From contig CAWFJJ010000029.1 in assembly GCA_963816185.1 (NCBI GenBank), positions 403,353 through 467,352 on the forward strand: a DNA stretch of 64,000 nt, read 5' to 3'. The position numbers were made by a program, and so were the translations under genes. The first letter of the stretch is position 1. Every line of letters starts with the position of its first letter. Below the pieces are notes generated by a model. The model saw only the letters and a list, made by a program, of their open reading frames with translations. It did no database searches and was not told the origin of the DNA. The DNA comes from Thermoanaerobaculia bacterium. Its GTDB lineage: Bacteria > Acidobacteriota > Thermoanaerobaculia > UBA5066. This document shows, in pieces, positions 20,990 through 46,979 of the stretch.

Positions 20990-21064
<75 letters not shown>

Positions 21065-21074
21065 ACTTCCTTCC

Positions 21075-21140
21075 CCGCGAACGCATGGCGTTCGCGGTTA
21101 ACACGAACCCCGCGACGACCTCGCGGGGTTCTTCGCATTT
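21075..21140 (+). terminator. two GC-rich hairpins downstream of the tRNA
   Basis: ccgcgaacgc-atg-gcgttcgcgg and gaaccccgcga-cgacc-tcgcggggttc. Confidence 0.55.
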
Positions 21141-21328
21141 GGGCGCCATAAAAAGGAAGAAATGATTCTCCGTTGGATCCGATGGTGGAGCGAGCTCTGA
21201 GAACGCTGTGACCTGCTCGAACTCGGTCCGCGTCAGTGACCGCGAGCCGCTCTCTCGGGCGATTCTTGTCGAGAGCGGCAGAGACTGGTTAACGGCGAGC
21301 TGATTGCCGGGGTCCGGGGAGGCGAGTA

Positions 21329-21550
21329 AATAACCCACCTCAGGGGGGTCAGTTTCGAGCGCGTACGGGCTGGAGGCGACCTCGACGAATCCATCAGTGA
21401 ATTGGCGAAGTGACTGATTAATAGACACTTAGTCCAGTCGCTCGAGCCAGTGCCGGAGTCCCGTTCTCGCGCCAACGCTGCGGTTCATAAATACCCAGGG
21501 TTATTTACTCGCCTCTCCCGAATCGCCGCGACGTGGCCCAACGTCGCGCG
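21329..21550. repeat. left copy of ~220-bp block-conserved inverted repeat
   Basis: 21329-21358 matches the reverse complement of 34440-34469 at 29/30. 21493-21550 matches the reverse complement of 34246-34303 (17/18 and 21/22 sub-blocks). Block spacing is 164 vs 166 bp. Confidence 0.85.
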
Positions 21551-21745
21551 AGAAAAGCGCGCCGCTGGCCGCAGTGGCGGCCCTTCGGGCCAATCCGATC
21601 TGGCCGCAGCGGCCCTCTGGTTTACCTTGCCTTGTTCACCAGAGAGAGCGTCCATGTCCGTCGATAGCGGCGCCTTAAGGCCGCGGAAAAGGAGGGAAAG
21701 CGTGAATAGAGCGTCGAACGCGGTACGAAACGCGACGACGCCGCC

Positions 21746-22254
21746 GTGGTGCGCACTGCGGCCGAACTCGCGGCCCTCGCCGAGATGACGGGCGCCGAGA
21801 TGGCGGAGAAATACCTCGTTCTGTTCGGGCAACCGGCCCGCTCCCGGAACAAGGACTTCCTCAGGAAGCGCCTCGCCTGGCGCATCCAGGAACTGGCCGA
21901 AGGAGGTCTTTCGGAGCGGGCCCTCGCCCGCATCGAAGAGCTCGGGGCGGACGCTCTCACTGCAAGGCGGCGTCCGGCACGACCGCGAACGTCTTCCCCG
22001 ACATCGCCGCCAGTCCACGGGATGCCGCGCGTGACCCGCGACTCCCGCCCGCCGGGACCGTAGTCCGGCGCGTCCACGGCACGACCGAGCACAGCGTGAC
22101 CATCCTCGACGACGGCTTCGAGTACGACGGTGAGCGGTACCGCTCCCTCTCGAAGATCGCCCGCGTCATCACCGGCACCCCCTGGAACGGCTATCTCTTC
22201 TTCTTCGGGCGGGCGAACGGCACGAAGTCCCGGGCTGGAGCGCAGGGACGATGA
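21746..22254 (+). pseudogene. DUF2924 domain protein, frameshifted
   Basis: [17 protein letters not shown] in one frame; PGTVVRR...[30 protein letters not shown] in another. Confidence 0.8.
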
Positions 22255-23590
22255 AGAGCCGGCGGAAACCCGCGCCGGAAGTCGCTCCCGAGACCCGCCG
22301 CTGCGCCATCTACACCCGGAAGTCGACCTCGGTCGGCCTCGAGCAGGATTTCAACTCCCTCGACGCCCAGAGGGAGGCCTGCGCCGCGTACATCAAGAAG
22401 CAGCCCGGCTGGAGCCTCGTCGACGACCGCTATGACGACGGCGGCTTCACCGGCGCGAACATCGAGCGTCCTGCCTTCCAGAGGCTCCTGGCCGACATCG
22501 ACGCCAGGAAGATCGACGTCGTGGTCGTCTACAAGGTCGACCGCCTCAGCCGGTCGCTCCTCGACTTCGCGAAGCTGATGGAGCGGTTCAGCCGGGCCGG
22601 AGCCTCCTTCGTCTCCGTCACCCAGAACTTCTCCACCGCCGACGCTATGGGGCGGCTGACCCTGAACATGCTCATGTCCTTCGCCGAGTTCGAGAGGGAG
22701 ATGATCGGCGAGAGGACGCGCGACAAGATCGCAGCGGCCCGCCGGAAGGGAAAGTGGACAGGCGGCCCGGTCCCCCTCGGCTACACGGTCAAGGAAAAGC
22801 GACTTGTCGTAAACGAGGCCGAGGCGGTCCTCGTGCGCGAGATCTTCGCCCTCTACCTCGAGCAGCGGTCGGCTCTAGCGGTCGCCCGGCTCCTGAACGA
22901 ACGCCGTCATCCGTCGACAGCAGACGTGGGCGCGGACGGCAAGCCCCGCGGAGCCCACCCCTGGACGAACGCCGACGTGCTGCGACTGTCATCAAGGACG
23001 CCCATCTACGCGGGCTACATGCAGGAGTCACGGCGAGCTGTACGACGGAGAGCACGAGGCCATCGTCGAACGCGAGACGTTTGCGCGAGCACGAGCTCTC
23101 CTGGACGGGGCGTCACGGAAAATGAACGATCCGTCCCGCAACCCGGACTACATCCTGCGGGGGCTACTCCGCTGTGCATGCTGCGGCTCGGCTTTCACGC
23201 CTGCCTCGACCCGAAAGGGGACGGAACGAATACCGCTACTACCGCTGCATCAGGAGGGACAAGGAAGGCAGGGAGGCGTGCCCCTCGTCGCCTCTCCCGG
23301 CCGACGCCATCGAGGCATACGTGATCGAGCGGCTCAGGGAGTTTGCGGCGGAAGGAACCATGCCGATGCCGCCGAGATCGAGACCTCGTGGGTCGCACGC
23401 TGCCTCGCCGACTTCGATTCCATCTGGGACGTCCTGACGCCTGCAGAACCGGGGCCGGCTGGTACGCGCTGTCGTCGAAGCAGTCGAGGTCGACGAGCCA
23501 GCGAACCGGGTCAGGGTCCTCATAGTCGAGCCCAGCGACGGGCCTCGGCACGCTCCCGACCGAGGGCCATGCGAGGTGCTCGCGTGAGTA
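22251..23590 (+). pseudogene. large serine recombinase (resolvase, recombinase and zinc ribbon domains), frameshifted
   Basis: [42 protein letters not shown]...[13 protein letters not shown] and YRYYRC lie in shifted frames. End approximate. Confidence 0.85.
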
Positions 23591-23970
23591 CGCGGGGCGC
23601 GAGAGTCATAGACGGCGAGCTTCATCGGGTCCGGCACGGACGGCGGAAGCGATTCGTTGCCATCGCGTCGCCAGGGCCCTCTGCATCGCCCGGCCCGCGT
23701 CGCCGTCACACTCGCCCTCGCCCACAAGATCCGGCAGGGGATCGAGAGCGGAGAGATTCGGGATCAGGCGGAGGCCGCGAAGAATTCTCGGCCTAACTCG
23801 GGCGCGGCTCTCCCAGATCCTCGACCTTACGAATCTCGCGCCGGACCTTCAGGAAGAGATCCTCTTCCTCGAAGCGATCGACGGACGCGAGCCCATGAGT
23901 GAGCGGGCGCTGAGAGGAGTGGTTGGTGTCGACGGCGTGGGCCGAGCAGCGGCTGCGGAGAACGAAATAA
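23584..23970 (+). pseudogene. small HTH-like protein typical of DUF2924/recombinase modules, frameshifted
   Basis: Fragments RVAVTLALAH..IESGE, LTRARLSQILDLTNLAPDLQEEIL across frames. Confidence 0.55.
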
Positions 23971-24114
23971 GGCTCCATACGAATAAGCCGCAAGGGCAAC
24001 TAGGCCTAGCTTGCAAAGGCGGCTACATGCCAGTGAGCCCACTCGCGGCCGATCATCTGCCACGAGCTGGATCGGCATTGGTTCTCCGGTTACCTGCTAA
24101 ACTCTGACCTTGCC

Positions 24115-25416
24115 ATGACGATTGGTGTGGGCACGACAATCACACACGGCACCGACCGATACGAGGTGACGCGGACGCTGGGCTCCGGCGGCTTTGGAAG
24201 TACATTTGTTGCGGTACGTCGGTCCCCAGATAGAACACCCGTTGACGTTGTAATAAAGGTCCCGGCTCCGCACGTATTGACTGATCCAATCTGGGCGCAG
24301 AAATTTGCTCGTGAGGCGAGGATTCTCGCCAACGTTCATCATCCGAACGTCGTCAGGATTATCGCGTACTGGGAGTTTGCGAAATCAGGCGAGAAGGCTC
24401 TCGTCCAGGAACTCGTCTTGGGTGCTAAGGAACTTCCAGACTATATTGCGGGACATCCCGATTCAACCGGCTCGCTCTTGCTGCAGACACTCTACGCGAT
24501 GCACGCATTTCACAGCGCGGCATCGCCTGCCGCCGTTCACAGGGACCTTTCGCCGAGGAATATCTTGGTTTCAGATTCAGGTGTCATCAAGGTCATCGAT
24601 TTTGGCCTCGCCAAGGAGGATCCTCGTGCGACTCAGACGCTAACACTGACCGGCGACTCGTTCGGAACTCCGGGCTGCATGTCGCCTGAGCAAGTAGCTG
24701 ACGCCGGCTCCGTTGATCACCGAACGGATCTCTTCGCCGTAGGGCGATCCTTCGCGGCCGCCTTACAGCGCCGGCACCCTCAGGTTGCGCGGCCAGACAA
24801 GCTGGCGGAACCATGGAAGACCCTGTGCATGAAGCTTGCGGAGGACGATCGGGACGACCGCCCAGCGAATGCTGAGGCGGCCACCTCTGAGGTCTTTCGT
24901 GAGATGTTGCGATTCGGTGCAAAGCTCGAGCATCTGGCAATGCACGCAGTTGAAATGAGCAAGCGTGTCGTCCTGGCGGGATGGCCCGAGTTGTGCGAGC
25001 GGGAACTATTGGCGATGGGCGATTTCGATCAGGCGGCAGTTCGTCTCATGGAGAGTCTGAGCCCTGGCGTGTTTGCGCCATCCTTCGACGCGCCTAAGCT
25101 CTTTGACCTGTTAGAGAAATCCTCCGCTGTCGCGAATGTTAGCTCCGGCAGCGCCGATTTCGAGGACGCTGATCCGCTTGGTGTCGTGTACGCGCGCCTC
25201 TATCGGTATTTGGATCCGGCTCGCAAGATGGCCTGCTTCGCACGGGTATGCAAGGCGGCTGTGCTAATGCACAGGTACTCAGTCATGCAGGATGTGAGGG
25301 TAATCTACGGAGCAGAGTCTAATCCGGCGATTCAGGCCCAACTTGTGAGCGTCCTAAATACCGAGGATCCGCGCCGAGCTATTGAAGGGCGGGGCGTGTT
25401 GCCTAGAACGCCGTAG
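24115..25416 (+). CDS. soluble Ser/Thr protein kinase with unknown helical C-terminal domain
   Basis: GSGGFGST, VVIK, HRDLSPRN, DFG, GTPGCMSPEQ; no TM segment; visibly lower GC than the flanks. Confidence 0.88.
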   Translation: MTIGVGTTITHGTDRYEVTRTLGSGGFGSTFVAVRRSPDRTPVDVVIKVPAPHVLTDPIWAQKFAREARILANVHHPNVVRIIAYWEFAKSGEKALVQELVLGAKELPDYIAGHPDSTGSLLLQTLYAMHAFHSAASPAAVHRDLSPRNILVSDSGVIKVIDFGLAKEDPRATQTLTLTGDSFGTPGCMSPEQVADAGSVDHRTDLFAVGRSFAAALQRRHPQVARPDKLAEPWKTLCMKLAEDDRDDRPANAEAATSEVFREMLRFGAKLEHLAMHAVEMSKRVVLAGWPELCERELLAMGDFDQAAVRLMESLSPGVFAPSFDAPKLFDLLEKSSAVANVSSGSADFEDADPLGVVYARLYRYLDPARKMACFARVCKAAVLMHRYSVMQDVRVIYGAESNPAIQAQLVSVLNTEDPRRAIEGRGVLPRTP

Positions 25417-25832
25417 TGCCGTCGTCCGCGGCGGCCGCCCTCAGAATCCGGGTGACCTTCGATTCGCACCGGCGCTCTTCGCTCTTCGGCGTCGACGGTG
25501 TCGAGTGCCCGGAGAGTCACTTCATTACCCTCGGTCCCGGGCTTGACCTCTGGAGCTGGCGCACTAGGTGTTGCGGCGACGTGTGGGGCTGCAACGGGAA
25601 GTGCGGCGGGTGTTGGCTCTACTCTGAAGCACCCGACGCTGCTAAAAGGCCCTCCATCGCCTAGACAGCCCGGCCGATCTACGTGCAGAAGGTGGAAGTT
25701 CTCAGATTCCCAGGGATGTGCGCGTCACCTTCAACGTCAATAACTTGTTTGATCCGTCACTCTTTCGTGCCGATAACGCGTGTATCGTCAGCGAGTTACA
25801 AGTTATGCGATCGGACGTGGTACGAGCAGTCA

Positions 25833-25900
25833 TTGACAGAAGGATCTAAAAGGACTTAAATTCGTCCTTGTCAGTCCTTGTTAAGGACGAACGAAGGAGT
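25833..25900 (+). promoter_or_regulatory. sigma70 promoter with overlapping AAGGAC/GTCCTT operator-like boxes
   Basis: TTGACA (25833)-17 nt-TTAAAT; AAGGAC at 25850 and 25883; GTCCTT at 25864 and 25874; AAGGAG Shine-Dalgarno. Confidence 0.6.
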
Positions 25901-25908
25901 CATCCGTT

Positions 25909-26913
25909 ATGAGCATGCCCGTCACGGAACCCTGCCCCTGGTGCGGTAGCGAGATTTCTCACGACCGGTTCCTGGAGATCCAGCAGCGCATTCGCGCCGA
26001 GGAACAGGCGCGCGTGAAAGTGATGGAGGCCGACTTCAAAAAGCGAGAGGTACTCGTTCGACAGCAGGCCGAGGCCGAGGTCAACAAGAAGGTCCTCCTC
26101 GCGAAGGAACAGACGGAGCAGCAGTGGAAGAAGCTCGTCGCCGACCAGCGTGCCTCGCTCGAGAAAGAGCGCGATGGCCTGCTACTCAAGAGCCAGGCCG
26201 ACCACGCGCGGGTGAATGCGGCGCTCCAGAAGAAGATCCTCGAGCTTCAGCGGCAGGTCGAGCGCAAGACGGCCAACGACATCGGCGACGGCGCTGAGAT
26301 CGACGTGTACGAGGCGCTGCGCGACGTGTTCCCGGGCGACAAGATCACGCGGGTCGAGAAGGGCCAGCCCGGAGGGGACATCCTCCACGAGGTCCTCTAC
26401 AAGGGCGCGTCCTGCGGAAAGATTCTCATCGACGCCAAGATGCGCCAGCAGTGGAAGTACGAGTTCGTGAACAAACTGCGCGCCGACCAGACCGAAGCCG
26501 GGGCCGAGCACGCGATCCTCGCGACGACCGCGTTCCCGGAGGGTAAGAAGGAACTCGCCATCGAGTCCGACGTCATCCTCGTCAGCCCGGCGAGGACTGT
26601 GCACATCGTCAGCCTCCTCCGGAAGGCGATGGTCCAGACCCACGTGAGCGGCCTAAGCGTCAAAGAACGCGCCACGAAGATGAGCAAGCTCTACGAGTTC
26701 ATCACGAGCCCAACCTACGCGCAGCGCGTTCGGGAAGCCGAGAAACTCACGGACGACATCCTGGAGCTTGACGTGCAGGAGAAGAAGGCTCACGACAACG
26801 TCTGGAAAAAGCGGGGCACCTATACCATCCGGCTTAACGCCGTCCTTCGCGAGGTCGACACGGACGTCGCGAGCATCATCGAGTCGCGCGAACCTGCCAT
26901 CTCGGCGGCCTAG
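25909..26913 (+). CDS. DUF2130-like coiled-coil protein with putative nuclease domain
   Basis: CPWC at the N-terminus, coiled coil, then G...E..LRDVFPGDKI..V.KG..GGD, GKILIDAK, KLRADQ..A.A. Confidence 0.75.
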   Translation: MSMPVTEPCPWCGSEISHDRFLEIQQRIRAEEQARVKVMEADFKKREVLVRQQAEAEVNKKVLLAKEQTEQQWKKLVADQRASLEKERDGLLLKSQADHARVNAALQKKILELQRQVERKTANDIGDGAEIDVYEALRDVFPGDKITRVEKGQPGGDILHEVLYKGASCGKILIDAKMRQQWKYEFVNKLRADQTEAGAEHAILATTAFPEGKKELAIESDVILVSPARTVHIVSLLRKAMVQTHVSGLSVKERATKMSKLYEFITSPTYAQRVREAEKLTDDILELDVQEKKAHDNVWKKRGTYTIRLNAVLREVDTDVASIIESREPAISAA

Positions 26914-26917
26914 TCCG

Positions 26918-27859
26918 ATGAGCGCCGTCCCCGACAACGTCGTCCGTCACTGGCAGGAACGCCGCCTGGGCAGAACCATCCTCCGGACCTACCGGGACAC
27001 CGTCGACATTGACGAGTGCGTCCCGAACCTCAAGCAGCCACGCATGGGGCCAAAGGAGGACCCGGAGCTCCAGCGCCAGATCGAAGCGAACGAGGGCATC
27101 TTCGAGCCGCTCCTCCTCGAGCCACACCCGGAACTGCCCGGGAAATACCGAATCATCGATGGCGACCGGCGTTGGACGAACAGCAAGGTCCTCGTCGACA
27201 CCCAGAAGAAGAATCTCTACCGCCCGCTCCCCGCGGAAATCACGGACCACACCCTCACGGACGAAGAGCGATTCAGGGTCTGGATCTACATCCACCGCCA
27301 GCGAAGGGAATGGGAGTCTAAAGAAAAGGAAATGGTCGCCTACAGCCTCGTCACGATGGTCGGGCGAGCGAGCGCCGCCAACATCCTCGGCATAACCGTG
27401 CGCGACCTCGACAAACTCGTCGACATCTACGAGCTGAGCGACAAGCTTACGACCCTTCCCGAGCCGGGCGCCAGCATCACGTGGGCGCGTGAGATCAAGA
27501 ACCTCAACCGGAAGCTCCTTAACCCGACGACGCTCGACACCATCGTCCAGCGGATCAATGACAACGAGATCACGAACAGCAAGGACATCCGGAAGCTCCG
27601 AAAGATCCTCAAGGACCCCGTCGCCCGCGACCACTTCCTGAAACCGGACGGCAGTATCGAGACCGCCCTCGAACAACTCGCGCCCGCGCCGTCAAAGAAG
27701 GCTGGAGGCCTCGTCGGCGACCTCCAGGAGCTGGGCGAGACTCTCAAGCGCTATCCCTGGACGACCCTGGCCGCCAGCAGAGGAGACGCGGAGCTACTCC
27801 GGACCCTCGAACAGACCGAGAAGCTCCTTAAAGACCTAAAGAAGGCTCTCGGACGTTGA
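26918..27859 (+). CDS. ParB/Srx N-terminal domain protein
   Basis: PN..QPR, GIFEPLL, YRIIDGDRRW; follows DUF2130 by 4 nt. Confidence 0.8.
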   Translation: MSAVPDNVVRHWQERRLGRTILRTYRDTVDIDECVPNLKQPRMGPKEDPELQRQIEANEGIFEPLLLEPHPELPGKYRIIDGDRRWTNSKVLVDTQKKNLYRPLPAEITDHTLTDEERFRVWIYIHRQRREWESKEKEMVAYSLVTMVGRASAANILGITVRDLDKLVDIYELSDKLTTLPEPGASITWAREIKNLNRKLLNPTTLDTIVQRINDNEITNSKDIRKLRKILKDPVARDHFLKPDGSIETALEQLAPAPSKKAGGLVGDLQELGETLKRYPWTTLAASRGDAELLRTLEQTEKLLKDLKKALGR

Positions 27860-27937
27860 AATGGCCGGCGAAGTGCTCGATGACGCGGCCCTCGTCAACA
27901 GCTTAAAGAGGCGGCTTCTCACGAGCGAGGTGACATC

Positions 27938-29240
27938 GTGAGAATCCGCGACCGCGTCGTCGAGCTCCGCCGCATCCCGGCGGGCTCGCTCCTCCCGAAC
28001 CCGAAGAACTGGCGACGGCATCCGAAGGCGCAGGCCGACGCCCTTCGCGGCCTGCTCTCCGAAATCGGTTACGCCGATGCCCTCCTGGCTCGCGAAACGC
28101 CCGAGGGCTTGATGATCATCGACGGACACCTCCGTGCCGAGACGACACCAGACACCGTCGTGCCGGTCCTCGTGCTTGACGTCACGGAGGCCGAGGCCGA
28201 CAAGCTCCTCCTGAGCCTCGACCCGCTCGCGGCGATGGCCGAAGGGGACACCGATGCCCTTCGCGCCCTCCTCGAGCAGGTCGAAACCGACAGCGACGCC
28301 GTCCAGAAGATGCTCGACGGCCTCGCCAAGGAGTACGGCGCGCAGCCTGGCCCGAAGCCTCTCGACGACCCCGGTCCGAGGTTCGACGAGGCTGAGGAGC
28401 TCAGGAAGAAGTGGGGCGTCGAGCTCGGGCAGCTCTGGGTGCTCGGCGAGCACCGGCTTCTCTGCGGCGACTCCACGAACCCCGCCGACGTCAGCGAGGC
28501 TCATGAACGGCGCGCGTGCCGTCCTCTTCGCGACCGACCCGCCGTACCTCGTCGGGTACGACGGGACGAATCACCCCGGAACCAAGGCAAGCGAGAAGCG
28601 CTTCTCGCTCAACACCGACTGGTCGGGCACCTACGGACAGGCGTGGGACGAGGCGGACGCGGCGCAGAACTCCGACCTCTACGACCGCTTCATCAAGGTT
28701 GCAGTCGAGGTCGCGATTCTCCCCAACGCCGCCTGGTACTGCTGGCATGCCTCGCGACGGCAGCGGATGGTCGAGGAGAGCTGGGAGAAGAACGGGGCAT
28801 TCGTCCACCAGCAGATCATCTGGAACAAGCCGAACAGGCCGATCCTCACGCGCTCCTGGTACCTGTGGGCGCACGAGCCCTGCTTCTTCGGCTGGCTGAA
28901 GGGAAAGAAGCCGCCGAAGGAGACCGTCGATTACGGGCGCACGGTCTGGGAGATCGACGCGGCCTCAATGACGATGAGCGTCCCGACCACCCGACCCCGA
29001 AGCCCCTCGACTGCTTCGCGATCCCCATGCGCCAGCACACGAAGGTCGGCGACGTCTGCTACGAGCCCTTCAGTGGCAGCGGGAGCCAGATCATCGCCGG
29101 GGAGCGCGAAGGCCGACGCGTTTACGCGATCGAGATCTCGCCCGCCTACGTGGCCGTGACCCTCGAGCGGTGGGCCGAGGCGACTGGCGGTAAGCCGCAA
29201 TCGAATCAGACGCCGGCGCGTACGGCGAAGGTGCGAGTGA
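27938..29240 (+). pseudogene. ParB-like domain plus N6/N4 DNA methyltransferase, frameshifted
   Basis: PNPKNWRRH, IIDGHLR, GEHRLLCGDST; TDPPY in a shifted frame; HPTPKP, EPFSGSGS, AIEISPAY. Confidence 0.85.
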
Positions 29241-29686
29241 TGGCCCGCCCCACACTTCTCACGCCCGAGCGCCATAAGGCGATCGTCGCAGCGATTCGGG
29301 CCGGAGCCTTCGACTGGATCGCCGCCGAGGCCAACGGCATCGACCGGCAGACTTTCAAGCTCTGGATGCGGAAGGGCATGCGGAAGAAGAGGGAGCCCTA
29401 TCTCTCTTTCGTCCACGACGTCCGTACCGCGCGCGCCCAGGCCCGTCTCTCCGCCGAGATCGAGGTCAGGAAGGAACAGCCGTTCAGCTGGCTGCGCTTC
29501 GGCCCGGCCGCGAGCGTGACGGGGAAGAAGGCTGGACGGAGTCGTCCGAGATCAAGCACTCCGGATCCGTTCGGCGTCATGTACTCGCAGGAGTGGACGA
29601 TCATCTCAGTCGCCATCGAAACGGCGCTCGAGAGCTACCCCGAAGCGAAGCTGGCCGTAGCAGAGGCCTTGAAGAGGCTCGCGTAG
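29240..29686 (+). CDS. putative terminase small subunit / HTH protein
   Basis: MARPTLLTPE..IVAAIRAG...AAEANGI...TF..W; TGATG coupling; sits immediately upstream of the TerL ATPase. Confidence 0.55.
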   Translation: MARPTLLTPERHKAIVAAIRAGAFDWIAAEANGIDRQTFKLWMRKGMRKKREPYLSFVHDVRTARAQARLSAEIEVRKEQPFSWLRFGPAASVTGKKAGRSRPRSSTPDPFGVMYSQEWTIISVAIETALESYPEAKLAVAEALKRLA

Positions 29687-30480
29687 TGCTAGCCCGGAAC
29701 CTTGAGCTCCGCCTCGACCCGGCCGCGATCATGGAGCGGGCCGGGATGCCGCCCGACCCGTGGCAGGTCCGGCTCCTGAGGTCGAGGAACGAGCGGACCC
29801 TTCTTCTGTGCTCGCGTCAGAGCGGCAAGAGCACGGTGACGGCCGCGATGGCGCTCCACGAGGTCCTCTTCCGGCCGAAGTCCCTCGTGCTTCTTCTGAG
29901 CCCGTCCCTCCGTCAGTCGCAGGAGCTGTTCCGGAAGGTCACCGACTTCAGGAACAGGCTCGGCGAGCCGATCGCGATCGCCGAGGAGTCGGCGCTTCGC
30001 GTCGAGCTTCAGAACGGCTCGCGCATCGTCGCCCTGCCCGGAACTGAGGAGACCGTCCGTGGCTTCTCGGGCGTCGGCTCCTCATCGTCGACGAGGCCGC
30101 GCGCGTGGACGACCCGCTCTACTTCTCGATCCGTCCGATGCTCGCCGTCTCGGGCGGCCGGATGGTGTGCCTCACGACGCCGTTCGGGAAGCGTGGGTTC
30201 TTCTACGAGGAGTGGACCGGCGACGGCCCGTGGGACCGCATCAAGGTCACGGCGAGGGAGTGCCCGAGGATCTCGGCGAAGTTCCTCGCGGAGGAGCGAG
30301 CCTCACTCGGCGAATGGTGGTACCAGCAGGAGTACGAGTGCTCGTTCTCGGACACGACGGACCAGTTCTTCCGGACCGTCGACGTCGAGCGGGCCTTCTC
30401 GGACGAGGTCACGCCGCTCTTCCCGGATGCGCCGCCGCTCGCAGCCGCTGTCCCTTCCCTCTGGCGACGTCTTCCTCGAC
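29686..30480 (+). pseudogene. terminase large subunit ATPase domain, frameshifted
   Basis: PDPWQ, CSRQSGKS (Walker A), SPSLRQSQE, NGSRI. IVDEAARV (Walker B), TTPFGKRGFFY and QEYECSF lie in the next frame. Confidence 0.8.
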
Positions 30481-30510
30481 GACATCGAGCCGCATCACGG
30501 AGTCCGAGCA

Positions 30511-31118
30511 GTGAGGTTCGTCGTCGGCGTCGACCTCGGCCAGACGGCGGACTACACGGCCATCACGATCCTCGAGGAGAGGGAGAAGAACTCCTACGAC
30601 GTCCGGTACCTCGAGCGTCTTAGAAACACGCCGTACCCGCTCGATCGTCAGGCGGCTCGACCACCTCGTGAAGAGGCTTCCCGAGAAGCCCTCGATGGCC
30701 GTGGACGCGACCGGTGTCGGCAGGCCCGTCATCGACATGATCCGGGACGCGAATCTCCCCGCGACCATCTACCCGATCACGCTGACCGGCGGGGATGCCG
30801 TCAGTCAGGGACGGGATGGAGCGGCACGTGCCGAAGAGGGACGTGGCGTCGACGATCGCCGTGCTCCTCCAGACCGGACGGCTCCGGATCGCCCGAGGCC
30901 TCAAGGAGTCCGAGACCCTTCTCCGCGAGCTCCTGAACTTCCGCGTGAAGATTTCCCTCTCCGGCCACGACACCTACGAGGCCTGGAGGGAGCAGGAGCA
31001 CGACGACCTCGTCCTTGCGGTCGGGCTCGCTGCGTGGCTCTTCGAGAAGGGACGGGACGGGTACCTCCTGTACATGGAGGAAGAGCTCAAGAGGTTCAGG
31101 GAAAAGAGGGCGGGTTGA
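30511..31118 (+). pseudogene. stand-alone terminase RNase H-like nuclease domain, copy 1, frameshifted
   Basis: FVVGVDLGQTADYTA, VDATGVGRPV, VPKRD, ELLNF, EHDDLVLAV. Confidence 0.75.
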
Positions 31119-31818
31119 GCTTCGTCATCGGCGTCGAGCTCGGCCAGGTCTCGGACGTGACGGCGATCGCCGTCGTGGAGTCCCTGACGCTGCCGTTTCT
31201 CAGGAGCGAGGAGATCCGCGAGAGAACGCTGGGTGAGCGTGCGGCCCGTCTACCAGGGCCCCGGACGGGACCGAGACGCGCGAGCACCCTCCCGTGAACT
31301 TCGCCCTCCGGCATCTCGAGAGGATCCCGGCGGGCGTGTCGTACCCGGAGATCGTGAGCCGGGTCGAGGCCCTTCACCGGCAGCTCAGAAAGCCAGTCGA
31401 CCGTCCTCGACGGCACGGGCGTCGGGAAGGCGGCCGTCGAGCTGTTTCGACAGTCGGGCTTCTACGTCGTCCGTCTTCACGCTGATCGCAGGGGACCAGA
31501 TGATGCAGGACGGCAGCAACTACCGGATCCCGAAGAGGGACGTGATCTCGTCGACGCAGGTTCTGCTCCAGACAGGGCCGCCTCAAGATCGCCCGATCGC
31601 TGCCGCACGCGGCTCTACTGGCCCGCGAACTCGTCAACTTCCGCTTCAAAGTGGGTCAGGACCGGTCCGAAGACGTCCTCGACTGGCGCGAGGGGCCGGA
31701 CGACGATCTCGTCCTGGCGCTCGCGATCGCGGCGTGGGAGGCAGAGCGAGACCCGGATCTGGCGTCGTCGTTCGGATATGGCGTTTCGGAGACGGCGGGG
31801 TGGCGCGGGATCTTCTAG
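31115..31818 (+). pseudogene. terminase nuclease domain paralog, copy 2, frameshifted
   Basis: FVIGVELGQVSDVTA, LDGTGVGK, IPKRDVIS, ELVNF, GPDDDLVLALA. Confidence 0.7.
31626..31791 (+). repeat. ~166-bp direct repeat, copy 1 (3' end of nuclease paralog)
   Basis: About 80% identical by eye to 33986-34151. Confidence 0.85.
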
Positions 31819-31953
31819 TGAGAGAGTCGAGCCACCATCTTCTCGTCGAGCTGATTACGACGGGCAGATTCAAGAGCCGGTACTGCTACCCGCAGATGGC
31901 GGCGATGACGAAGCGGATTCGCGAAATTGTGAATCGTACGGCCGGCGGCGACA

Positions 31954-32853
31954 TCAAGTATAGATCGGCCCGAGTTGAATGTGGCGGATGCGGAAACTCT
32001 TGCCGCTTGGGATCGGTTCCAGCGCGAAGACGAGTCGTTTGAGAGGGCCGTCGGTAAGCGAAAGCCATCGGAGGATCAGGCTGGCCTTCTCTGAGAGGTC
32101 TGGCGCGGGCAGGTGTATGTGTGAGACATCGGGCGCGCGGGCCAAGAAGTCCGCAATTCCGCCGGCGGCGAGGTCCGCCGGTGCGACGAGGTCCTCGGCG
32201 CGGAGCTGGTCGGACTCGGTTGAGATCGGCTTTACCTCGACCGTTGCGAGTCTCCGTTTGTAGAACGCGTCGCACGTCTGACCGAGGAAGAGGAGAAAGT
32301 CTTCCACGTGTTGCTCGTTCGACAGCGTCTCGTCGTTGTCGGACACCCAGTGCAAGTGGTCGAGGATCGGGGCGAGCCCAGCCAGGAAGAACGTCACGAT
32401 GCTGGTGAGGCGCGCAACGCGCTCGAATGACGTCGCGCTCCAGTACTGGTAATTGTCGTAGCGCGGCGACGAACTCAGAAGCTTCTTGTCATAGGTGAAG
32501 AGGCTATTGATCGCAGTGTTGACTCCTACGGTCACGAGCACGCCCTCTAGCGCATCTGCCGCCCGGAGGAAGTCCGACAGCGAGCGGAGACGGACGGCAT
32601 CGGAGAGCCTTTTGTAGGAATACGTACGTCCATGGTCATGGCGGCGTCGATGCTCGGCGCGAAGCCGCTGCCAAGCAGGGAGGGAGTCGGCGGAGGCGAG
32701 GAGGAACGAATACGTTTCGTACGGCGATCCCCGATGCTGACCGCTGTAGTCGGATGCCACGAAGAGGCGGCTGCACGTCGAGAGACTGGGGAGGATGGGA
32801 GGATCGATGGCATCCATGCGCCCCATGACGACATCAAATGAGTTCCAGAACAT
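31954..32853 (-). CDS. hypothetical protein, possible RNase H-like (DUF3800-like) fold
   Basis: Uninterrupted ORF with FVASDYSG, WVSDND and EDL...ADLAAG acidic motifs. Confidence 0.6.
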   Translation of the reverse strand: MFWNSFDVVMGRMDAIDPPILPSLSTCSRLFVASDYSGQHRGSPYETYSFLLASADSLPAWQRLRAEHRRRHDHGRTYSYKRLSDAVRLRSLSDFLRAADALEGVLVTVGVNTAINSLFTYDKKLLSSSPRYDNYQYWSATSFERVARLTSIVTFFLAGLAPILDHLHWVSDNDETLSNEQHVEDFLLFLGQTCDAFYKRRLATVEVKPISTESDQLRAEDLVAPADLAAGGIADFLARAPDVSHIHLPAPDLSEKASLILRWLSLTDGPLKRLVFALEPIPSGKSFRIRHIQLGPIYT

Positions 32854-33025
32854 GAAGCCAGGCGGAAGGTGACGCCAGTTTCTGGAACCGAGAATCGGGA
32901 TGCCCGCAAACATTTCTGGATGGTACCGCGGCCCGACTCACATCCAACAAGAGGGTTCACTGACGTTCTTGCAGGAGCACATGGGCCCCCAATGCTGTGT
33001 TCTCCGAGCGCCCTAGTCTTCATGG

Positions 33026-33850
33026 TCACGCTCTCGTGGCCCTATCGAGCTTCCGATGACTCAGGGACGCCAGGGTCAGGATGTCGAGGGCGTCCTGCTC
33101 GCTCATCGGCCACTCGATCTTCGGGTTGTGCGCAGTCGGATTGCGAATCGTCCCGAAGAGTCCGACGAGGAGATTCATGAAGCCGCGCTGTTCGCCTCGA
33201 TCGGTGTCTGTAGCAAGGGCGTTGATCGCGAGGATGGGGCTCCCAGGCGTCCCGAGTGGAGTCTTCCCAAGCGCGAACGCCTGTGTGATGAGCTCCGCGC
33301 CGTCACTAACGAGGCCGGACTTCTGACGAACCTTCGCTGCAATGCTCTTCATCGCCTCGAAGACGGCATGAAAGTAGTTCTCCTGGAGGAGTTCGGCCCT
33401 GCAGTAGAGAAGGACGTCGGGGTGAACGCCTCGGGCTTCGAGCGACGCCCGCAGTCGATTTGCACGAGCTAGGGCGTCGGTGAGATTCGAGGCAGCGCTG
33501 ACCCGGCGAAGCTGCCCGTCGTCTCCGAGTTCCATGCCGCGGAATGCGAGGATGGCGTTGAGCTTCTCACGCTGCACGGCGAAGAGGTCGGGCGATGCTA
33601 TGAAGCGGACTGGCTTCATGGCTCTGGTCAGGACCATGATCGCGTGATTCCCCATACCCTTCTGGTTCTGCATCTCGACGAGTGCGTTGAAGAGCCGCTT
33701 CCACTTCGTCATCTCGGGAGTTACGTCCGGGATCTTGCATTCGGCGAGGATGCGTAGGATTTCTCCGCCCGTGAGCCCATCCGTCGTGTCGGCAATGACC
33801 CGACAGAGCGACTCCAGGTGTGCGCTGTCGAAGGGAGGGATGTGATCCAT
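33026..33850 (-). CDS. TIGR02391 (Ymh) family protein with AbiJ-like N-terminal domain
   Basis: GLTGGEI, TKWKRL, NYFHAVFEA.K, DG..L, EQ.GF, G..RNPTAH (Rx4H HEPN-like). Confidence 0.85.
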   Translation of the reverse strand: MDHIPPFDSAHLESLCRVIADTTDGLTGGEILRILAECKIPDVTPEMTKWKRLFNALVEMQNQKGMGNHAIMVLTRAMKPVRFIASPDLFAVQREKLNAILAFRGMELGDDGQLRRVSAASNLTDALARANRLRASLEARGVHPDVLLYCRAELLQENYFHAVFEAMKSIAAKVRQKSGLVSDGAELITQAFALGKTPLGTPGSPILAINALATDTDRGEQRGFMNLLVGLFGTIRNPTAHNPKIEWPMSEQDALDILTLASLSHRKLDRATRA

Positions 33851-33985
33851 CGTCGGAACCGAACTCCTCTGAGCTCGATGCTACCGGAGAGAGTGCTGTC
33901 GACCGCTGGGCTGCCGAAGAGAGGCGTGGCGTCAACGATCGGTGTCTCCTGCCCGTTCCCTTCCGCACGCGGTTCTTTGGCCCCA

Positions 33986-34151
33986 CGAACTCGTAAAGTT
34001 CCGCTTCAAAGTGGGTCATGAACGGTCTGGAAGACGCCCTCGACTGGCGCGAAGGGCCCGACGACGACCTCGTTCTAGCGCTCGCGATCTCGGCGTGGGA
34101 GGCCGAGCGGAACCGGGCCTCGGCTTCTCGTGCGGGTACGGCGTGTCGGAG
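33986..34151 (+). repeat. ~166-bp direct repeat, copy 2 (orphan 3' fragment of terminase nuclease)
   Basis: Encodes DWREGPDDDLVLALAISAWEAE with no 5' part of the gene. Confidence 0.85.
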
Positions 34152-34245
34152 CTTCAGGGCTGGAAGGGCTTCTAGCATTGGTCGAAACGCGTGTTGACGG
34201 GGAGGCCGCACGGAAGTCCGCGTCTCCCACAGAGCCGCCTAACGC

Positions 34246-34469
34246 CGCGCGACGTTGGCCCACGTCGGGCGCTCGGAGGAGGGCTGAGTAGATAACCCTG
34301 GGTTAGAAACGGCGCGCCACGAATCGCACGTGCGCGTCGGGCGACGTGACTGCGCCTGCGACGTATTAAGTGCACTCCCTTAATCAGTTCCGAGATCGTT
34401 TAGACGCGCCGCGAGTAATGATTCCCGTGCGTCAGTCCGTCGAAACTGACCCCCCAGAGGTGGGTTATT
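34246..34469. repeat. right copy of ~220-bp block-conserved inverted repeat
   Basis: Reverse-complement match to the blocks in 21329-21550. Confidence 0.85.
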
Positions 34470-34800
34470 AACTGATCATGGTGACTCTCGCGGACCACTC
34501 GATTGAGGTCGGAATTCCGACTTGCGCCCGATCCCATAATCTGGCTCGAGATCCGGCCTCCGCGATCGGCTCCTAACCGTTTGAGGGTGGCGTCGATGCG
34601 GCCCGACGTATATCCCGTCAGTCTGACTAAATGACACGTTATCGGACCGTGTGTAGAGAACGGGGCGCAAGTGGCGAAGTGACCACTCAAGGTCAGGTTG
34701 ACCCGGCGTCCGTGGCGGCCTTCGCCTAGACCTTGCCGAACCTCGCGGTGCAGGTGTCCGTGTTGCTGAACGGTAGGCTGGCGTCTGCTCGTGGGTCAGA

Positions 34801-35070
34801 TCACCCTGGCTCGTCCATCGCCCCGGAAATCAAGGCAAGTGCCGCCCTCACGAGTCCATTCACGGGGCCGTTCTTGCCGAGCAATTGGCCGTTGACGTAG
34901 CCGCCGTCGATGAGAAGCACGAGCTGATCCGCCAGCAATGTGGATTGGCGCGCACCCATTCGCTTCGTCAGGTCGCCCAGACGTCGACGCAATTCGGCCT
35001 TGTGCGCGAGAGCGGCGGCGCGTGCCGGGTGGTCGGCGGCGGGGAATTCGGTCGCCAGGATGCGTCACGC
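34801..35070 (-). pseudogene. TetR family regulator C-terminal remnant
   Basis: HPAR..A..HK, LADQLVLLIDG; no HTH N-terminus. Confidence 0.55.
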
Positions 35071-35149
35071 TCATTTCGGCTTCAGCCTCTTGCGGGCGCG
35101 GTAGCGGGCGGCCCGAATTGCCTCTGGCGTCTTCCCGGTTCGGCGGGCC

Positions 35150-35402
35150 TTCTGCACGGCTGTTTCGTCCTTCGCCCGCGGGCACTCCGAACCGCCGAGC
35201 TCTGGTCATCGCGGGCGACGACCCGTCCGCAAAGGCCATGGTCACCGAGATGCTCGGCGCGTTTGGCTTCGATACGGTCGACGCGGGGCCGCTGAAGGAG
35301 GGCTGGCGCATTCAGCGTGACACGCCGGGCTACGGACCACGACACAACGCCTCGGAGTTGAGGAGGGACCTCGTGGCCGCGAAGCGGTATCGGGACATGT
35401 GA
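35150..35402 (+). pseudogene. NADPH-dependent F420 reductase-like C-terminal remnant
   Basis: RRALVIAGDD..AK, FGFDTVDAGPL.EGWRIQRDTPGYG; no N-terminal Rossmann motif. Confidence 0.65.
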
Positions 35403-35458
35403 CGCGATCGTCCAGCGCTCGGGCCGCGACCCGATCGGAAGGTCTCTCCACTCGCACC

Positions 35459-35491
35459 ACAGCCCCCGGCAATTCCCATCGCGCCCCTCCA
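35459..35491 (-). repeat. IS481-like terminal repeat copy
   Basis: acagcccccggcaattcccatcgcgcccctcca, a variant of the repeat family. Confidence 0.8.
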
Positions 35492-35546
35492 GGATTCTTT
35501 GTAAGGATCATAGACTTACGCGCCTCGGGATCCGTAAACTGTCTTC

Positions 35547-36785
35547 GTGGAGACCGAAGAGCTAAATCGGCTGATCCGCTCCCTCAACGAGGACCGGTGG
35601 AAGGACGACGCGCCGGGCGAGGAGCGGATCGAGCTCGTTGGCGGCGACAACGCCCCGTCCGCCCCCGAGCCGGCCTTCCCCTCGCCAGAAACGGCCGCGG
35701 ACCTCGACGTGGCGCCGCGTCTAGCCGCGCTCCTTTCGGAGACCCTCCGGCGCGGCGGGACCGACCTCCTCCTCGTGCCCGGCGCTGCTCCTACGATCCG
35801 CATCCACGGCCTCCTGGAGGCCGCGACGGCGGACCGGGAGCCTCTAGTGAGCGCGACGGCATGGGAACTCCTGGTCGGAGCGCTCTCTCCTGAACGGCGC
35901 CGCCATCTCGCGGAGAGCGGATCGGTCGATTTCTCGCTGCGCCTCGCGGGCTTGGGCCGGTTCCGCGTCAACCTCCATCGCACGAGGAGCGGCGCGGCTG
36001 CAGCGCTGCGGGCGCTGCCGCGCCGCATCCCATCGCTCGCCGAGCTCGGCTTGCCGGTGTCGCTCTACGATCTGACAAAACCCTCGCGCGGCCTCATCCT
36101 CATGACCGGAACAACCGGCTCCGGCAAGACTACGACGTTGGCGGCGCTCGTCGACCACGTAAACCGCACCGAGCGCCGCCATGTCGTCACGATCGAGGAT
36201 CCGATCGAGTACGAGCATGCCCATGCCCGGTCGGTCGTGGAACAGGTGGAGGTGGGCGTGGACGCTCCCAGCTTCGCGACGGCTCTCGTGGCGGCCCTGC
36301 GCCAGGATCCCGACGTGATTCTCGTCGGCGAGATGCGCGATCTCGAAACCACGCGCACGGCCCTCACCGCCGCCGAGACGGGCCACCTCGTCCTCGCGAC
36401 GCTCCATACGAACGACGTGCCCCAGACGATTCACCGCATCGTCGACCTCTTCCCTTCCGAGCAGCAGGCTCAGGTGCGCCACCAGCTCTCGCTTGCCCTT
36501 GCCGCCGTTGTCTGCCAGCAACTCGTGCCGCGCAAGGACGGCTCGGGGCGCGCCGCCGCCGCTGAGGTACTCTTGGCGACGGACGCCGTCCGAGCGTTGC
36601 TTCGGAAGGGCGCGCTGCATCAGCTCCATAACGAAATGACCCTCGGGCGAAGACTCGGGATGATGACGGCCGAAGACTCGCTTGCCGGGCTCGTCAGGTC
36701 CGGGGCGATCTCGGAGGAGGACGCGCGCCTGAGGGCCTCGCACCCCGAGGACCTCGCCTCGCTCTTGCGCTCCGAGGGACGGTAG
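35547..36785 (+). CDS. pilT: PilT/PilU family ATPase
   Basis: GRFRVN, GTTGSGKTTT, TIEDPIEY, ALRQDPDVILVGEMRD, AETGHLV..TLH. Confidence 0.88.
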   Translation: METEELNRLIRSLNEDRWKDDAPGEERIELVGGDNAPSAPEPAFPSPETAADLDVAPRLAALLSETLRRGGTDLLLVPGAAPTIRIHGLLEAATADREPLVSATAWELLVGALSPERRRHLAESGSVDFSLRLAGLGRFRVNLHRTRSGAAAALRALPRRIPSLAELGLPVSLYDLTKPSRGLILMTGTTGSGKTTTLAALVDHVNRTERRHVVTIEDPIEYEHAHARSVVEQVEVGVDAPSFATALVAALRQDPDVILVGEMRDLETTRTALTAAETGHLVLATLHTNDVPQTIHRIVDLFPSEQQAQVRHQLSLALAAVVCQQLVPRKDGSGRAAAAEVLLATDAVRALLRKGALHQLHNEMTLGRRLGMMTAEDSLAGLVRSGAISEEDARLRASHPEDLASLLRSEGR

Positions 36786-36800
36786 AGCCGCTGGTTCCTG

Positions 36801-37472
36801 ATGGCGCGCGAATGTAAACTAACGTCGATGGTCGTCACCCGCATGAAACAGGCCGCCGGGTCCACAGAACTCCACTATGCCGTTCGCGCCCTTTTCCTCC
36901 TTGCTATCGCAGCGACATGCGTGTCATGTCGCCGGCCCAATCCGACCCAACAGGTTATCGAGGGCTGGCATACGCAGGCCCCCAGCGACAACGGGTTCGC
37001 CGTTCGCTTGGATGACGCTACGCATAATGGGCGTCGGATTGTCGTTCTCACGAATGAAAGAAGTGACGCAACGGGGATTGGTACGATCGTTCGAAGGATA
37101 CCTGCCGCACCTTATCGCGGCCGCCGCCTTCGGTTTTCCGCTCTCCTACGCACTAAGGACGTGATCCGGGGCGCAGCCCTCTGGATGCGGATTGACGGAC
37201 CCGATCGGCCAGTCGCGTTCGACAACATGCAAGACCGGCGTGTCCTGGGAACTGTCGATTGGACTCAATACAACATCGTCCTCGACGTGCCACCAAACGC
37301 GCAGGAGATCGCATACGGCGTCCTTCAAGTAGGCTGTGGTTCAACGTGGATCGACGGCGCAGCCGTCACCCCTGTTGGAAACGACTTCGCCCCCACGAAT
37401 AAGCTCACGGCGGCTCAGCTAGCAAAGCTTCCCCCGCCTTCCGGCAAGGAATGCGACTGTGACAAGAAGTGA
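36801..37472 (+). CDS. putative exported protein with beta-sandwich (CBM-like) domain
   Basis: YRGRRLRFSA...ALWMRIDG...FDNM..R...GT.DW..Y.IVLDVP..A..I.YG. Start uncertain. Confidence 0.65.
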   Translation: MARECKLTSMVVTRMKQAAGSTELHYAVRALFLLAIAATCVSCRRPNPTQQVIEGWHTQAPSDNGFAVRLDDATHNGRRIVVLTNERSDATGIGTIVRRIPAAPYRGRRLRFSALLRTKDVIRGAALWMRIDGPDRPVAFDNMQDRRVLGTVDWTQYNIVLDVPPNAQEIAYGVLQVGCGSTWIDGAAVTPVGNDFAPTNKLTAAQLAKLPPPSGKECDCDKK

Positions 37473-40160: not shown

Positions 40161-40164
40161 TCGG

Positions 40165-46636: not shown

Positions 46637-46670
46637 AGTATCCTCCTTCTGTCGGATCTGACTTGCCGAG

Positions 46671-46699
46671 AACTTATGGCCTCCAGTGCCCCTTGTCAA
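46671..46699 (-). promoter_or_regulatory. sigma70-type promoter for the precursor gene
   Basis: On the minus strand TTGACA-17 nt-TAAGTT, about 35 nt upstream of the ATG. Confidence 0.65.
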
Positions 46700-46940: not shown

Positions 46941-46979
46941 GCGCCACAGACCCCCGGCAATTCCCATTGCGCCCCTACA
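46941..46979 (-). repeat. IS481-like terminal repeat copy
   Basis: gcgccacagacccccggcaattcccattgcgcccctaca. Confidence 0.85.

Follow-up and report, generated by a model that had tools for sequence, protein, structure and literature searches.

What kind of mobile unit encodes a phage DNA-packaging terminase and a serine recombinase between two inverted repeats, and has no recognizable portal or capsid gene? The question is raised by a locus in the 5.09-Mb genome of an uncultured Thermoanaerobaculia bacterium (Acidobacteriota; assembly GCA_963816185.1, here G000), which we analyzed in a stretch of 64,000 nucleotides (nt) of contig CAWFJJ010000029.1 (G000:C29:403,353-467,352; hereafter the window). 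A reading of the DNA letters alone (the original prediction) had proposed that the repeats, 13 kb apart, are the ends of a mobile unit recognized by its own terminase or recombinase. The comparisons reported here, with related genomes (G003, G009, G013, G017 and others) and other loci or contigs (L-numbers), place the genes in a large family of portal-less elements that is probably satellite-type. For the locus itself we prefer, at about an even chance, a satellite-type island integrated by the serine recombinase, in which the right-hand repeat combines a packaging site with Xer resolution and the left-hand repeat is a duplicate. Because the window genes are frameshifted, protein work was done on intact copies from G003, G009, G013, and G017.

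A split terminase without portal genes

In a length-limited search, all 8,000 scored candidates for the large terminase subunit (TerL) passed, indicating a large family. Of 600 pattern matches in the genome collection, 428 were confirmed, and the best 80 of these 428 were used as the chromosomal set, alongside a viral set of 86 IMG/VR loci. TerL is split into an ATPase gene and a separate nuclease gene in 75/80 chromosomal and 62/86 viral loci, and the nuclease gene occurs in two or more copies in 19 of the 75 chromosomal split loci versus 4 of the 62 viral ones. Among loci with at least 3 kb of downstream DNA (44 chromosomal, 44 viral), no chromosomal locus held a member of five portal clusters, whereas a portal was found in at least 29 of the viral split loci (27 by cluster and two by PHROG profile, with 25 of 45 candidate proteins scanned). 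None of 113 co-oriented downstream proteins of chromosomal loci matched a portal or capsid PHROG; tape-measure families were matched in four loci, and in two Clostridiales loci a capsid gene lies upstream of the small subunit gene (TerS). That the split TerL also occurs in portal-bearing phages suggests that a divided motor works, and shows that real phages employ one.

The nearest named TerL relatives of the window are metagenome-assembled contigs of Acidobacteriota/Thermoanaerobaculia, and chromosomal relatives span several phyla plus Archaea. The closest cultured relatives are Thermus phage Riverbug and Meiothermus phage MMP17 (51% and 49%, respectively, over the ATPase), which differ in having a fused TerL gene of 415-417 amino acids (aa) followed by portal and capsid genes. 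Ten chromosomal relatives, chosen by eye among the 57 loci that reach 9 kb or more, form complete islands with tRNA-like direct repeats at both ends, 8.4-15.2 kb apart. Each carries an integrase and most a primase/helicase; no portal was found in them, and one capsid and one tape measure were (74 of their 92 remaining proteins were scanned there, the other 18 in earlier scans or as members of labelled clusters). Divergent capsids may still be present among the unlabelled proteins.

These relatives bear on whether the locus is a decayed prophage whose structural genes were deleted and whose repeats were left over, as the original prediction had itself allowed should homologous elements carry full structural modules. 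The same split terminase in portal-bearing phages, the lack of a primase in the window, and its many frameshifts fit such a history. However, a portal is missing from all 44 chromosomal loci across several phyla and Archaea, and this, together with the ten complete islands of 8-15 kb bounded by attachment (att) repeats, indicates that the elements are not deleted prophages. The window genes are also free of internal nonsense codons and show more synonymous than non-synonymous changes (69 versus 22 in the TerL ATPase); the roughly 20 clear frameshifting indels, nearly all single-base insertions, are probably long-read errors. A decayed prophage is therefore largely refuted already, and we regard it as very unlikely.

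Some members of the family depart from this general layout. In L157 (complete, 8.4 kb), L158, and L196-L198, all from Clostridiales and without portal, a major capsid gene is found upstream of TerS, and split-terminase islands without portal but with a tape-measure-like gene are L141, L155, L161, and L170. In L103 (and L261), the nuclease gene does not follow the ATPase gene; it is located upstream of the methylase and reads the opposite way.

A 36-kb island at a tRNA-Asn gene

The inverted repeats are probably not the termini of the element, contrary to what had been proposed. The last 10 nt of a tRNA-Asn gene to the left of the repeats recur (9/10) at 56,970-56,979, giving an integrating unit of about 36 kb bounded by direct att repeats. 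When the two att arms are joined, they form a dyad (GAGTG/CACTC, GTTCGC/GCGAAC) around the direct repeat, as expected for a serine-integrase attP. Judged from its position only, the DUF2924-linked serine recombinase would be the integrase for these sites.

The arm preceding the right direct repeat of the window also precedes further left-arm copies (in G000:C12, G000:C6, and other genomes), showing that islands stack in tandem at tRNA-Asn. DNA beyond the right att site of the window resembles, by eye, the direct tRNA-Asn flank in several other genomes, and the same type of flank in L271 is the 3' end of an intact serine integrase gene of 555 aa. The remnant beyond the right att site thus probably marks an older occupant that was pushed downstream. 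L271 itself carries a different tRNA-Asn element (1,492-9,389), in which the C-terminus of the 555-aa integrase runs into the att site and which also encodes a DUF3631-like/polymerase-A-like fusion and a primase-like protein (labels by eye). Tandem islands of 1-3 kb with both tRNA-Asn att arms and without a recombinase were seen at L045:1,783-3,650 and L267 (~2,100-6,200); these tiny islands are probably mobilized in trans.

Two inverted cores with the probable character of binding sites

Block A of the left repeat (21,329-21,358) matches the reverse complement of 34,440-34,469 at 29 of 30 positions (34 nt by BLAST against the whole genome, E 2.4e-7), and block C (21,493-21,550 versus 34,246-34,303) is 83% identical over 59 columns (whole-genome E 6.8e-8). 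The placement of both blocks in the original prediction was accurate, as were its statements that they are almost equally spaced (A to C, 164 versus 166 nt) and that the DNA between them has diverged (19-26% identity). Block B held up in part: it is present in both copies (ACTGATTAA-N4-CACTTA on the left, ACTGATTAA-N7-CACTTA on the right), but the right copy is degenerate and only 43% identical in the alignment. Lying midway in the core, block B resembles the consensus for integration host factor (IHF). An integron attC reading of block C, raised by the ends of the right copy (TTCTAAC...GTTAGGC), was abandoned, as these ends are missing from other cores.

The first 10 nt of block A (site 1) are complementary to a site in block C (site 3), at a spacing of 175-179 nt in 46 of 48 distinct cores. 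Sites 1 and 3 match at 9.6 of 10 positions inside one core versus 7.0 between cores, and there are two main site types, GTAAATAAC and GTTTATTGG, with a few minor compensated variants. TGAY-N8-RTCA boxes number 18 in the aligned ends versus 0.3 in shuffles, in sequences that are related and not independent.

Such pairing could also mean that the core is a structured RNA or a folded single strand, present in two copies and closed by a helix between sites 1 and 3. Both sides have changed in 8 of 10 pairs of this long-range helix (17-row alignment), and the covariation score between the sites is 0.269 versus 0.128 in shuffled alignments (0/500 shuffles). Nonetheless, the double changes stem mostly from one switch between the two site types among related sequences, and mismatches at paired sites show no strand bias across the 48 cores (G-T 6, A-C 6). 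The core interior has no shared fold (consensus energy only -6.9 kcal/mol), its sequence being free to vary at nearly fixed length; the outer module described below gave 0/41 compensated pairs on either strand (RNAalifold), and Rfam searches returned only the tRNA at gathering score, plus one chance match at E 0.85. We consider an RNA core quite improbable. The equal numbers of G-T and A-C mismatches, the lack of a shared interior fold, and the fixed spacing favor the core being a pair of inverted protein-binding sites on double-stranded DNA, in agreement with the suggestion that conserved blocks reflect protein binding.

A possible link between core and terminase comes from the start of predicted helix 3 of TerS, which reads DRQT[F/L]K in four elements with type-1 sites and TRETLR in the one type-2 element for which a linked TerS is available. 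That the helix variant tracks the core site type is suggestive only.

The pair of cores recurs with the same genes in another genome, as the original prediction had asked to be sought. In G003:C4, the same left and right cores lie inverted about 10 kb apart at tRNA-Asn and enclose DUF2924, recombinase, ParB-methylase, TerS, TerL ATPase, and two nuclease genes, with cargo differing from that of the window. A query with the left end matched 12 of 41 relatives (several via the att arm alone), and one with the right end matched 7/29 genomes of the genus and 7/401 of the class. Because the cores recur within tRNA-Asn islands, the blocks are linked to these islands and are not a repeat dispersed through the genome. 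Self-BLAST of the 57 chromosomal terminase loci of at least 9 kb found a long non-coding inverted pair around the terminase in the window's genus only. Inverted left/right remnants without terminase genes were found in G000:C12 (~25 kb), G000:C6 (~10 kb), and G001:C15 (~0.9 kb). A remnant of a related element, with ParB-methylase pieces and a nuclease 3' end, was also seen beside a tmRNA gene (G000:C7:2,200-5,200, L005).

The original prediction had listed inversion among the possible uses of the repeats, and the 13-kb segment between the cores could in principle be inverted by the serine recombinase or XerCD. The inverted cores and the IHF-like site fit this, as do a reversed DUF2924-recombinase block in G013:C84, L107, and L180 and a metagenome contig (L295) in which a right-type outer module stands in front of DUF2924. 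Against inversion, none of six left cores behind an att arm and with both flanks known leads into a nuclease gene, 14 of the 16 distinct loci with both a right end and an att arm have the right end directed back at attL (by eye), and the left end has no Xer site. An invertible segment is therefore little supported and, in our view, hardly more probable than a decayed prophage; of the uses proposed for the inverted ends, helper packaging is the likeliest.

A dif-like Xer site at the right end

The right repeat extends about 220 nt outward of the core as a more conserved module, for a total of ~450 bp. This extension and its dif-like site had escaped the original prediction, as had the split of TerL and the larger island between tRNA-Asn direct repeats. 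Outside block A the extension comprises a ~170-bp module (~80-85% conserved) with CGGTCCGATAA, a 6-nt spacer, and a variable arm with a near-invariant GTCA.A in 57 right ends; the pattern used to search for right ends fixed the first 19 letters, so that the D arm lay outside it. The dif-like site shares 9 of 11 nt with the XerC arm of the host and continues with a 6-nt spacer and a D arm that keeps GT.A.A; in the window copy this D arm carries one extra base.

The host dif itself (ACGTCCGATAA TATTTA TTATGTTAAAT, on G000:C28) is the sole match to the canonical pattern in G000. The dif pattern is present in 27 of 29 genomes of the genus, once in 25 of them, and the reversed control gave 0; at two mismatches, one extra match is a right end. 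Exact GTCCGATAA 9-mers occur eight times in G000, four being in right ends and one in dif. The host encodes an XerD above cut-off plus a strong paralog. In L105, L107, and L128, which are more distantly related, the outer module likewise stands after terminase genes (E 2e-10 to 5e-6); its profile matched Acidobacteriota loci only, and a strict scan of 166 related loci returned no canonical dif-like site. The Xer site of the right end is, on this comparison, likely to be functional. Second dif-like sites with perfect host arms and other spacers were seen at G013:C51:13,684-13,708 (L387) and G017:C333:3,369-3,393 (L388), flanked by inverted ACTTACGC motifs (ACTT(A/G)CGC type); these are possibly plasmid sites or sites of integrative mobile elements exploiting Xer (IMEX).

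Mobility of right ends and turnover of cargo

A metagenome scan for right ends gave 112 stretches, of which the best 80 were used and two dropped as chance matches. Together with genome copies, the listed metagenome ends formed a set of 82 right ends with at least 60 nt of outer flank. These 82 ends have 58 distinct outer flanks, conservation stopping 24 nt outside the first ACTTGCGCC, and two flanks continue as uninterrupted homologues of host genes in G000, the likeness ending inside the outer box. A search for empty target alleles yielded two host-gene homologues and one deletion pair, with one-sided junctions only and no two-sided one. The sharp outer junction might be made by off-target action of the serine recombinase at the box, by the joining of ends that terminase has cut, or through trimming by selection. 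The outer TGA does not always serve as a stop codon of cargo: a stop-free frame of >100 codons ends there in only 6 of the 58 flanks (by reading).

Cores and flanks reassort. None of eight pairs of ends with spacers at least 75% alike share a flank, and 12 of 13 same-flank pairs have spacers <60% alike. Many pairs with a common flank change haplotype at the first D-arm base, a pattern with which Xer crossovers at right ends are compatible, though unproven. Extra HU/IHF-family genes were observed at right ends, inside or outside (L004:1,623-2,054, L041:4,670-5,008, L051:908-1,300, and a flank common to eight ends); the stop codon of one of them lies in the outer box.

The sharp boundary raises the alternative that the split terminase has been co-opted as a phage-free, transposon-like machine that cuts and moves DNA at inverted ends. 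Its nuclease genes, with an RNase H fold, are free-standing and more often duplicated in chromosomal than in viral loci, and in two of the 58 flanks the break falls within a homologue of a host chromosomal gene. However, neither a target-site duplication nor a matching left junction was found, TerS and the packaging ATPase are retained, and the majority of the family has att repeats and integrases of ordinary kinds, with no long inverted repeat. Pfam and PHROG scans also revealed no transposase between the repeats, as a transposon with terminal inverted repeats would have. We regard this as the least probable of the explanations considered.

The main rival to a packaging function is that the ends are purely a site for recombination and cargo shuffling, with an Xer core and accessory sites bound by DUF2924, phrog_14161, or host proteins, while the terminase is a passenger that packages from elsewhere. 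In addition to the 58 flanks among 82 ends, the reassortment of cores and flanks, and the haplotype switches, several arrangements favor this: a left core stands directly before DUF2924 in six loci, many ends lack terminase genes, and tandem direct ends flank cargo in L340, L344, and G009:C130. However, the outer module follows terminase genes in the distant relatives, most cores whose inner side is known run into fragments of nuclease genes, the spacer does not mark a clean breakpoint, and TerS helix 3 varies with the site type, albeit in weak numbers. Ends that serve recombination only are thus unlikely, although they deserve more weight than any other alternative.

A proposed satellite that may combine packaging and resolution

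Under the satellite interpretation, the DUF2924-linked serine recombinase would integrate and excise the 36-kb island at tRNA-Asn, and the core would be a nucleoprotein site of TerS and IHF that starts packaging in the manner of a pac or cos site. Having no portal or capsid of its own, the element would need the proheads of a helper phage. Host XerCD, acting at the Xer site, would then convert replicated or packaged multimers into monomer circles, as at cer and psi in plasmids. The second, inverted core before DUF2924 would have arisen by duplication or rearrangement of the end module, and might be retained for its binding of the same protein. The same islands often hold right-end modules that lack terminase genes, and these could be non-autonomous cargo units served in trans. 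Each mechanistic step is inferred; the family and the Xer site are well supported by comparison. That the core is the packaging site has, in our estimate, slightly less than an even chance.

Several observations weigh against this interpretation. No portal of four families was found in G000 (where a Mu-portal control gave no signal), and the exact 19-mer of the right end has 0 matches in IMG/VR. No primase is present in the window or in the G003 copy. The existence of terminase-less left/right remnants shows that the ends do not depend on linked terminase genes, and the long core was found only in the window's genus plus one genome of the same order. The correlation of TerS with site type amounts to one independent type-2 case, and one type-1 case (G017) joins two contigs by inference. 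As for the Xer site, its spacer in right ends differs from that of the host dif, linkage to the outer flank fades gradually with no clean break at the spacer, and the elements are not at dif: the host dif on G000:C28 is free of the outer module, and the ends lie in tRNA-Asn islands. Moreover, 400 conserved bases lie on the XerD side, and the accessory sequences of plasmids are on the XerC side. Finally, with ~20 frameshifting indels, the window copy may not be intact.

A bolder extension is that a satellite with its own complete, split terminase makes its cut at a TerS/IHF site to which a hijacked Xer site is fused, and from there packages through the neighboring DNA into helper proheads, that XerCD circularizes and resolves the incoming DNA away from dif, that terminase-less ends are portable packaging-and-resolution tags which continue to capture cargo (the 58 flanks, copies of host genes among them), and that the inverted second core allows entry from either side. 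We regard this combination as speculative, and as slightly less probable than ends that only recombine.

Relation to known systems

Elements of the SCC type (staphylococcal cassette chromosome) are also recombinase islands that stand one behind another at a single att site, with variable cargo and non-autonomous derivatives, and are not known to carry TerL. Phage P1 (pac and loxP) and lambda (cosB) offer the idea of a terminase site bent by IHF and set next to a tyrosine-recombinase site at which packaged DNA is circularized or resolved; the likeness to the right end is an analogy only, and here the recombinase would be host XerCD.

Passages of the SatelliteFinder paper describe phage-inducible chromosomal islands (PICIs) as borrowing TerL and capsid-forming PICIs (cfPICIs) as bringing TerL together with capsid and portal, TerL being a cfPICI marker (PMC10085698). 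The present elements resemble PICIs in being chromosomal and integrative, in having, across the wider family, a size of ~10 kb and genes for an integrase, a primase-replicase, and TerS, in lacking a portal and tail, and in a presumed dependence on a helper. They differ in having their own TerL (split, with a duplicated nuclease), a serine integrase, and an Xer-type site, and in showing no capsid-morphogenesis gene and, among the scanned window open reading frames (ORFs; those of ~80 aa or more), no recognized AlpA, MerR, or Stl regulator. Of the PICI hallmarks, integrase and TerS are present in the window; a primase-replicase is lacking there (present in G013:C81 and many distant relatives), and where a PICI has no other phage genes for structure or packaging, the window has a TerL ATPase gene and two nuclease genes. 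The presence of both TerS and TerL is shared with cfPICIs, from which the element differs in its split TerL and in the lack of capsid, portal, head-tail adaptor, and connector. The element is one that would work like a PICI, yet belongs neither to the PICIs nor to the cfPICIs.

Compared with cer/psi and the dif-like sites of IMEX, such as difGGI, the right end shares a host-like XerC arm, a 6-nt center, a degenerate XerD arm, and long adjoining conserved non-coding DNA, as far as the passages concerned describe them (PMC5357621, PMC3025954). In such passages, difGGI has a conserved XerC arm and a divergent XerD arm, and cer/psi require accessory DNA (PMC5357621). The right-end site accordingly has the parts of an Xer site (XerC arm, a center of 6-8 nt, XerD arm, and host Xer proteins), but it lies beside terminase genes in a tRNA island, its long conserved stretch is on the XerD side, and its center differs from that of host dif, whereas that of difGGI is homologous. 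Because the elements are not at dif, they are not IMEX. Tycheposons are likewise recombinase-driven islands that pile up tandemly at a single att site, vary in their cargo, and have non-autonomous derivatives; the portions of the report relevant here describe no TerL, and PICI-like tycheposons with TerS or a capsid gene only (10.1101/2020.12.28.424599). Among other satellites, AH14b is P4-like, with no terminase of its own mentioned in the passages concerned (PMC4936722), and EPIPs have TerS and a tape measure, TerL not being listed in the part of the source at hand (PMC12822802). DUF2924 adjoins a serine recombinase in phage WO, according to a passage of its description (PMC11376236). The literature searched, mostly at the level of abstracts, contained no description of a portal-less satellite with a split TerL or of an Xer site beside terminase genes.

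A large bacterial and archaeal family with a full, naturally split motor and no portal lies outside the PICI/cfPICI dichotomy as drawn in the SatelliteFinder passages (PMC10085698), and its split TerL makes it possible to ask directly whether the ATPase must be joined to the nuclease. The dif-like site beside the terminase suggests how a satellite unable to shrink capsids could make integrable monomers from packaged multimers. With two site variants in nature, and TerS helix variants to match them, the packaging signal can be probed by swaps. The same ends also appear to drive the turnover of cargo, including defense-like genes, in an uncultured lineage of Acidobacteriota.

Genes of the element and its cargo

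Domain and PHROG profiles bore out the gene content read from the sequence (DUF2924, a serine recombinase with Recombinase and Zn-ribbon domains, ParB, methylase, and terminase; Table 1), and Pfam and PHROG scans of the unit between the repeats found no portal, capsid, primase, or transposase, as had been claimed. The best PDB fold match of TerS is the weak one to Sf6 TerS (E 0.41). Both nuclease genes belong to phrog_27743, and their profile matches TerL nuclease structures (5tge/5m1q, E 1e-8). The ESM Atlas returned DUF2924 and hypothetical clusters only. In G013:C81, a primase-helicase and a sigma-like gene are kept, indicating that the window is a reduced member.

Table 1. Features of the window, in window coordinates
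Feature	Coordinates	Strand	Remarks
tRNA-Asn	20990..21064	+	ARAGORN, Rfam; last 10 nt (21,055-21,064) are the left direct repeat (attL core)
attL arm	21065..21300	+	Two hairpins and CTGAGA boxes; common to many tRNA-Asn islands of the genus, with or without core
Left core A-B-C-D	21325..21550	+	Site 1, 21,326-21,334; site 3 (inverted partner), 21,500-21,508
Left core, further parts	~21,408-21,432 (IHF-like block B)	+	Also a terminal palindrome
DUF2924 gene	21700..22254	+	Pfam PF11149, E 1.5e-17; tblastn; frameshifted in assembly
Large serine recombinase	22251..23600	+	PF00239, PF07508, PF13408; phrog_95 on G003 copy; ~440 aa in intact relatives
Small recombinase-associated protein	23605..23990	+	phrog_14161
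Inner cargo 1	24115..27859	+	Ser/Thr kinase, DUF2130, ParB-like protein; other genes instead in G003
ParB-N/N6-N4 DNA methyltransferase fusion	27938..29240	+	PF01555; phrog_498 and phrog_620 on G003 copy
TerS, N-terminal helix-turn-helix	29240..29700	+	phrog_4102, E 1.4e-12 on G013 copy; predicted model
TerL ATPase-only gene	29686..30514	+	phrog_7579, E 3.5e-65 on G013 copy; 275 aa in intact relatives
Terminase nuclease gene 1	30511..31118	+	Acidic D8, D65, D164/165 kept in intact relatives (alignment)
Terminase nuclease gene 2	31115..31810	+	First acidic residue D to E; ~30-aa insertion
Inner cargo 2	31954..33850	-	319-aa ORF of unknown function; Hypoth_Ymh (PD-Lambda-3_B-like)
Duplicate of nuclease gene 2 3' end	33951..34176	+	83% to 31,591-31,791; such fragments precede many right ends
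Right core A-B-C-D	34246..34473	-	Inverted versus left; site 1, 34,464-34,472; site 3, 34,288-34,296
Outer module	34520..34672	-	Between inverted ACTTGCGCC motifs; dif-like Xer site ~34,621-34,649
Outermost TGAY-N8-RTCA box	34680..34695	.	Conservation among right ends stops here
Outer cargo in att-bounded island	34696..56879	.	PilT-like ATPase, lanthipeptide cluster, attC-like cassette array, IS remnants, kinase-TPR
attR arm	56880..56979	+	Three CTGAGA boxes; ends in right direct repeat 56,970-56,979
Probable remnant 3' end of a different serine integrase	56980..57190	-	Likeness to tRNA flanks judged by eye

Defense-like cargo was seen near ends, including a Gabija pair, a CapP-like peptidase module, and a PD-Lambda-3_B-like gene (L049:12,725-16,254, L028:14,640-16,427, and window 33,026-33,850, respectively). 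A frameshifted HK97-type capsid gene lies beside tRNA-Phe at a contig start (G000:C5:691-2,514, L392) and is the sole PF05065 match in G000. In the outer cargo of the window, the lanthipeptide-type cluster (36,801-46,300) encodes a peptidase-C39 ABC transporter, HlyD, MacB/FtsX, and a LanM-like DUF4135-LanC protein. At 47,588-49,314, at least four attC-like repeats stand 500-630 nt apart with single small minus-strand ORFs between them, forming an integron-like cassette array with no integrase seen nearby. Insertion sequence (IS) ends (TGTAGGGG...GGGAATTGCCGG) and remnants of rve_3 transposases are abundant (window 35,446-62,644; L003, L055, L056, L307, L344, L346), and the same IS repeatedly interrupts right ends just past the dif-like site.

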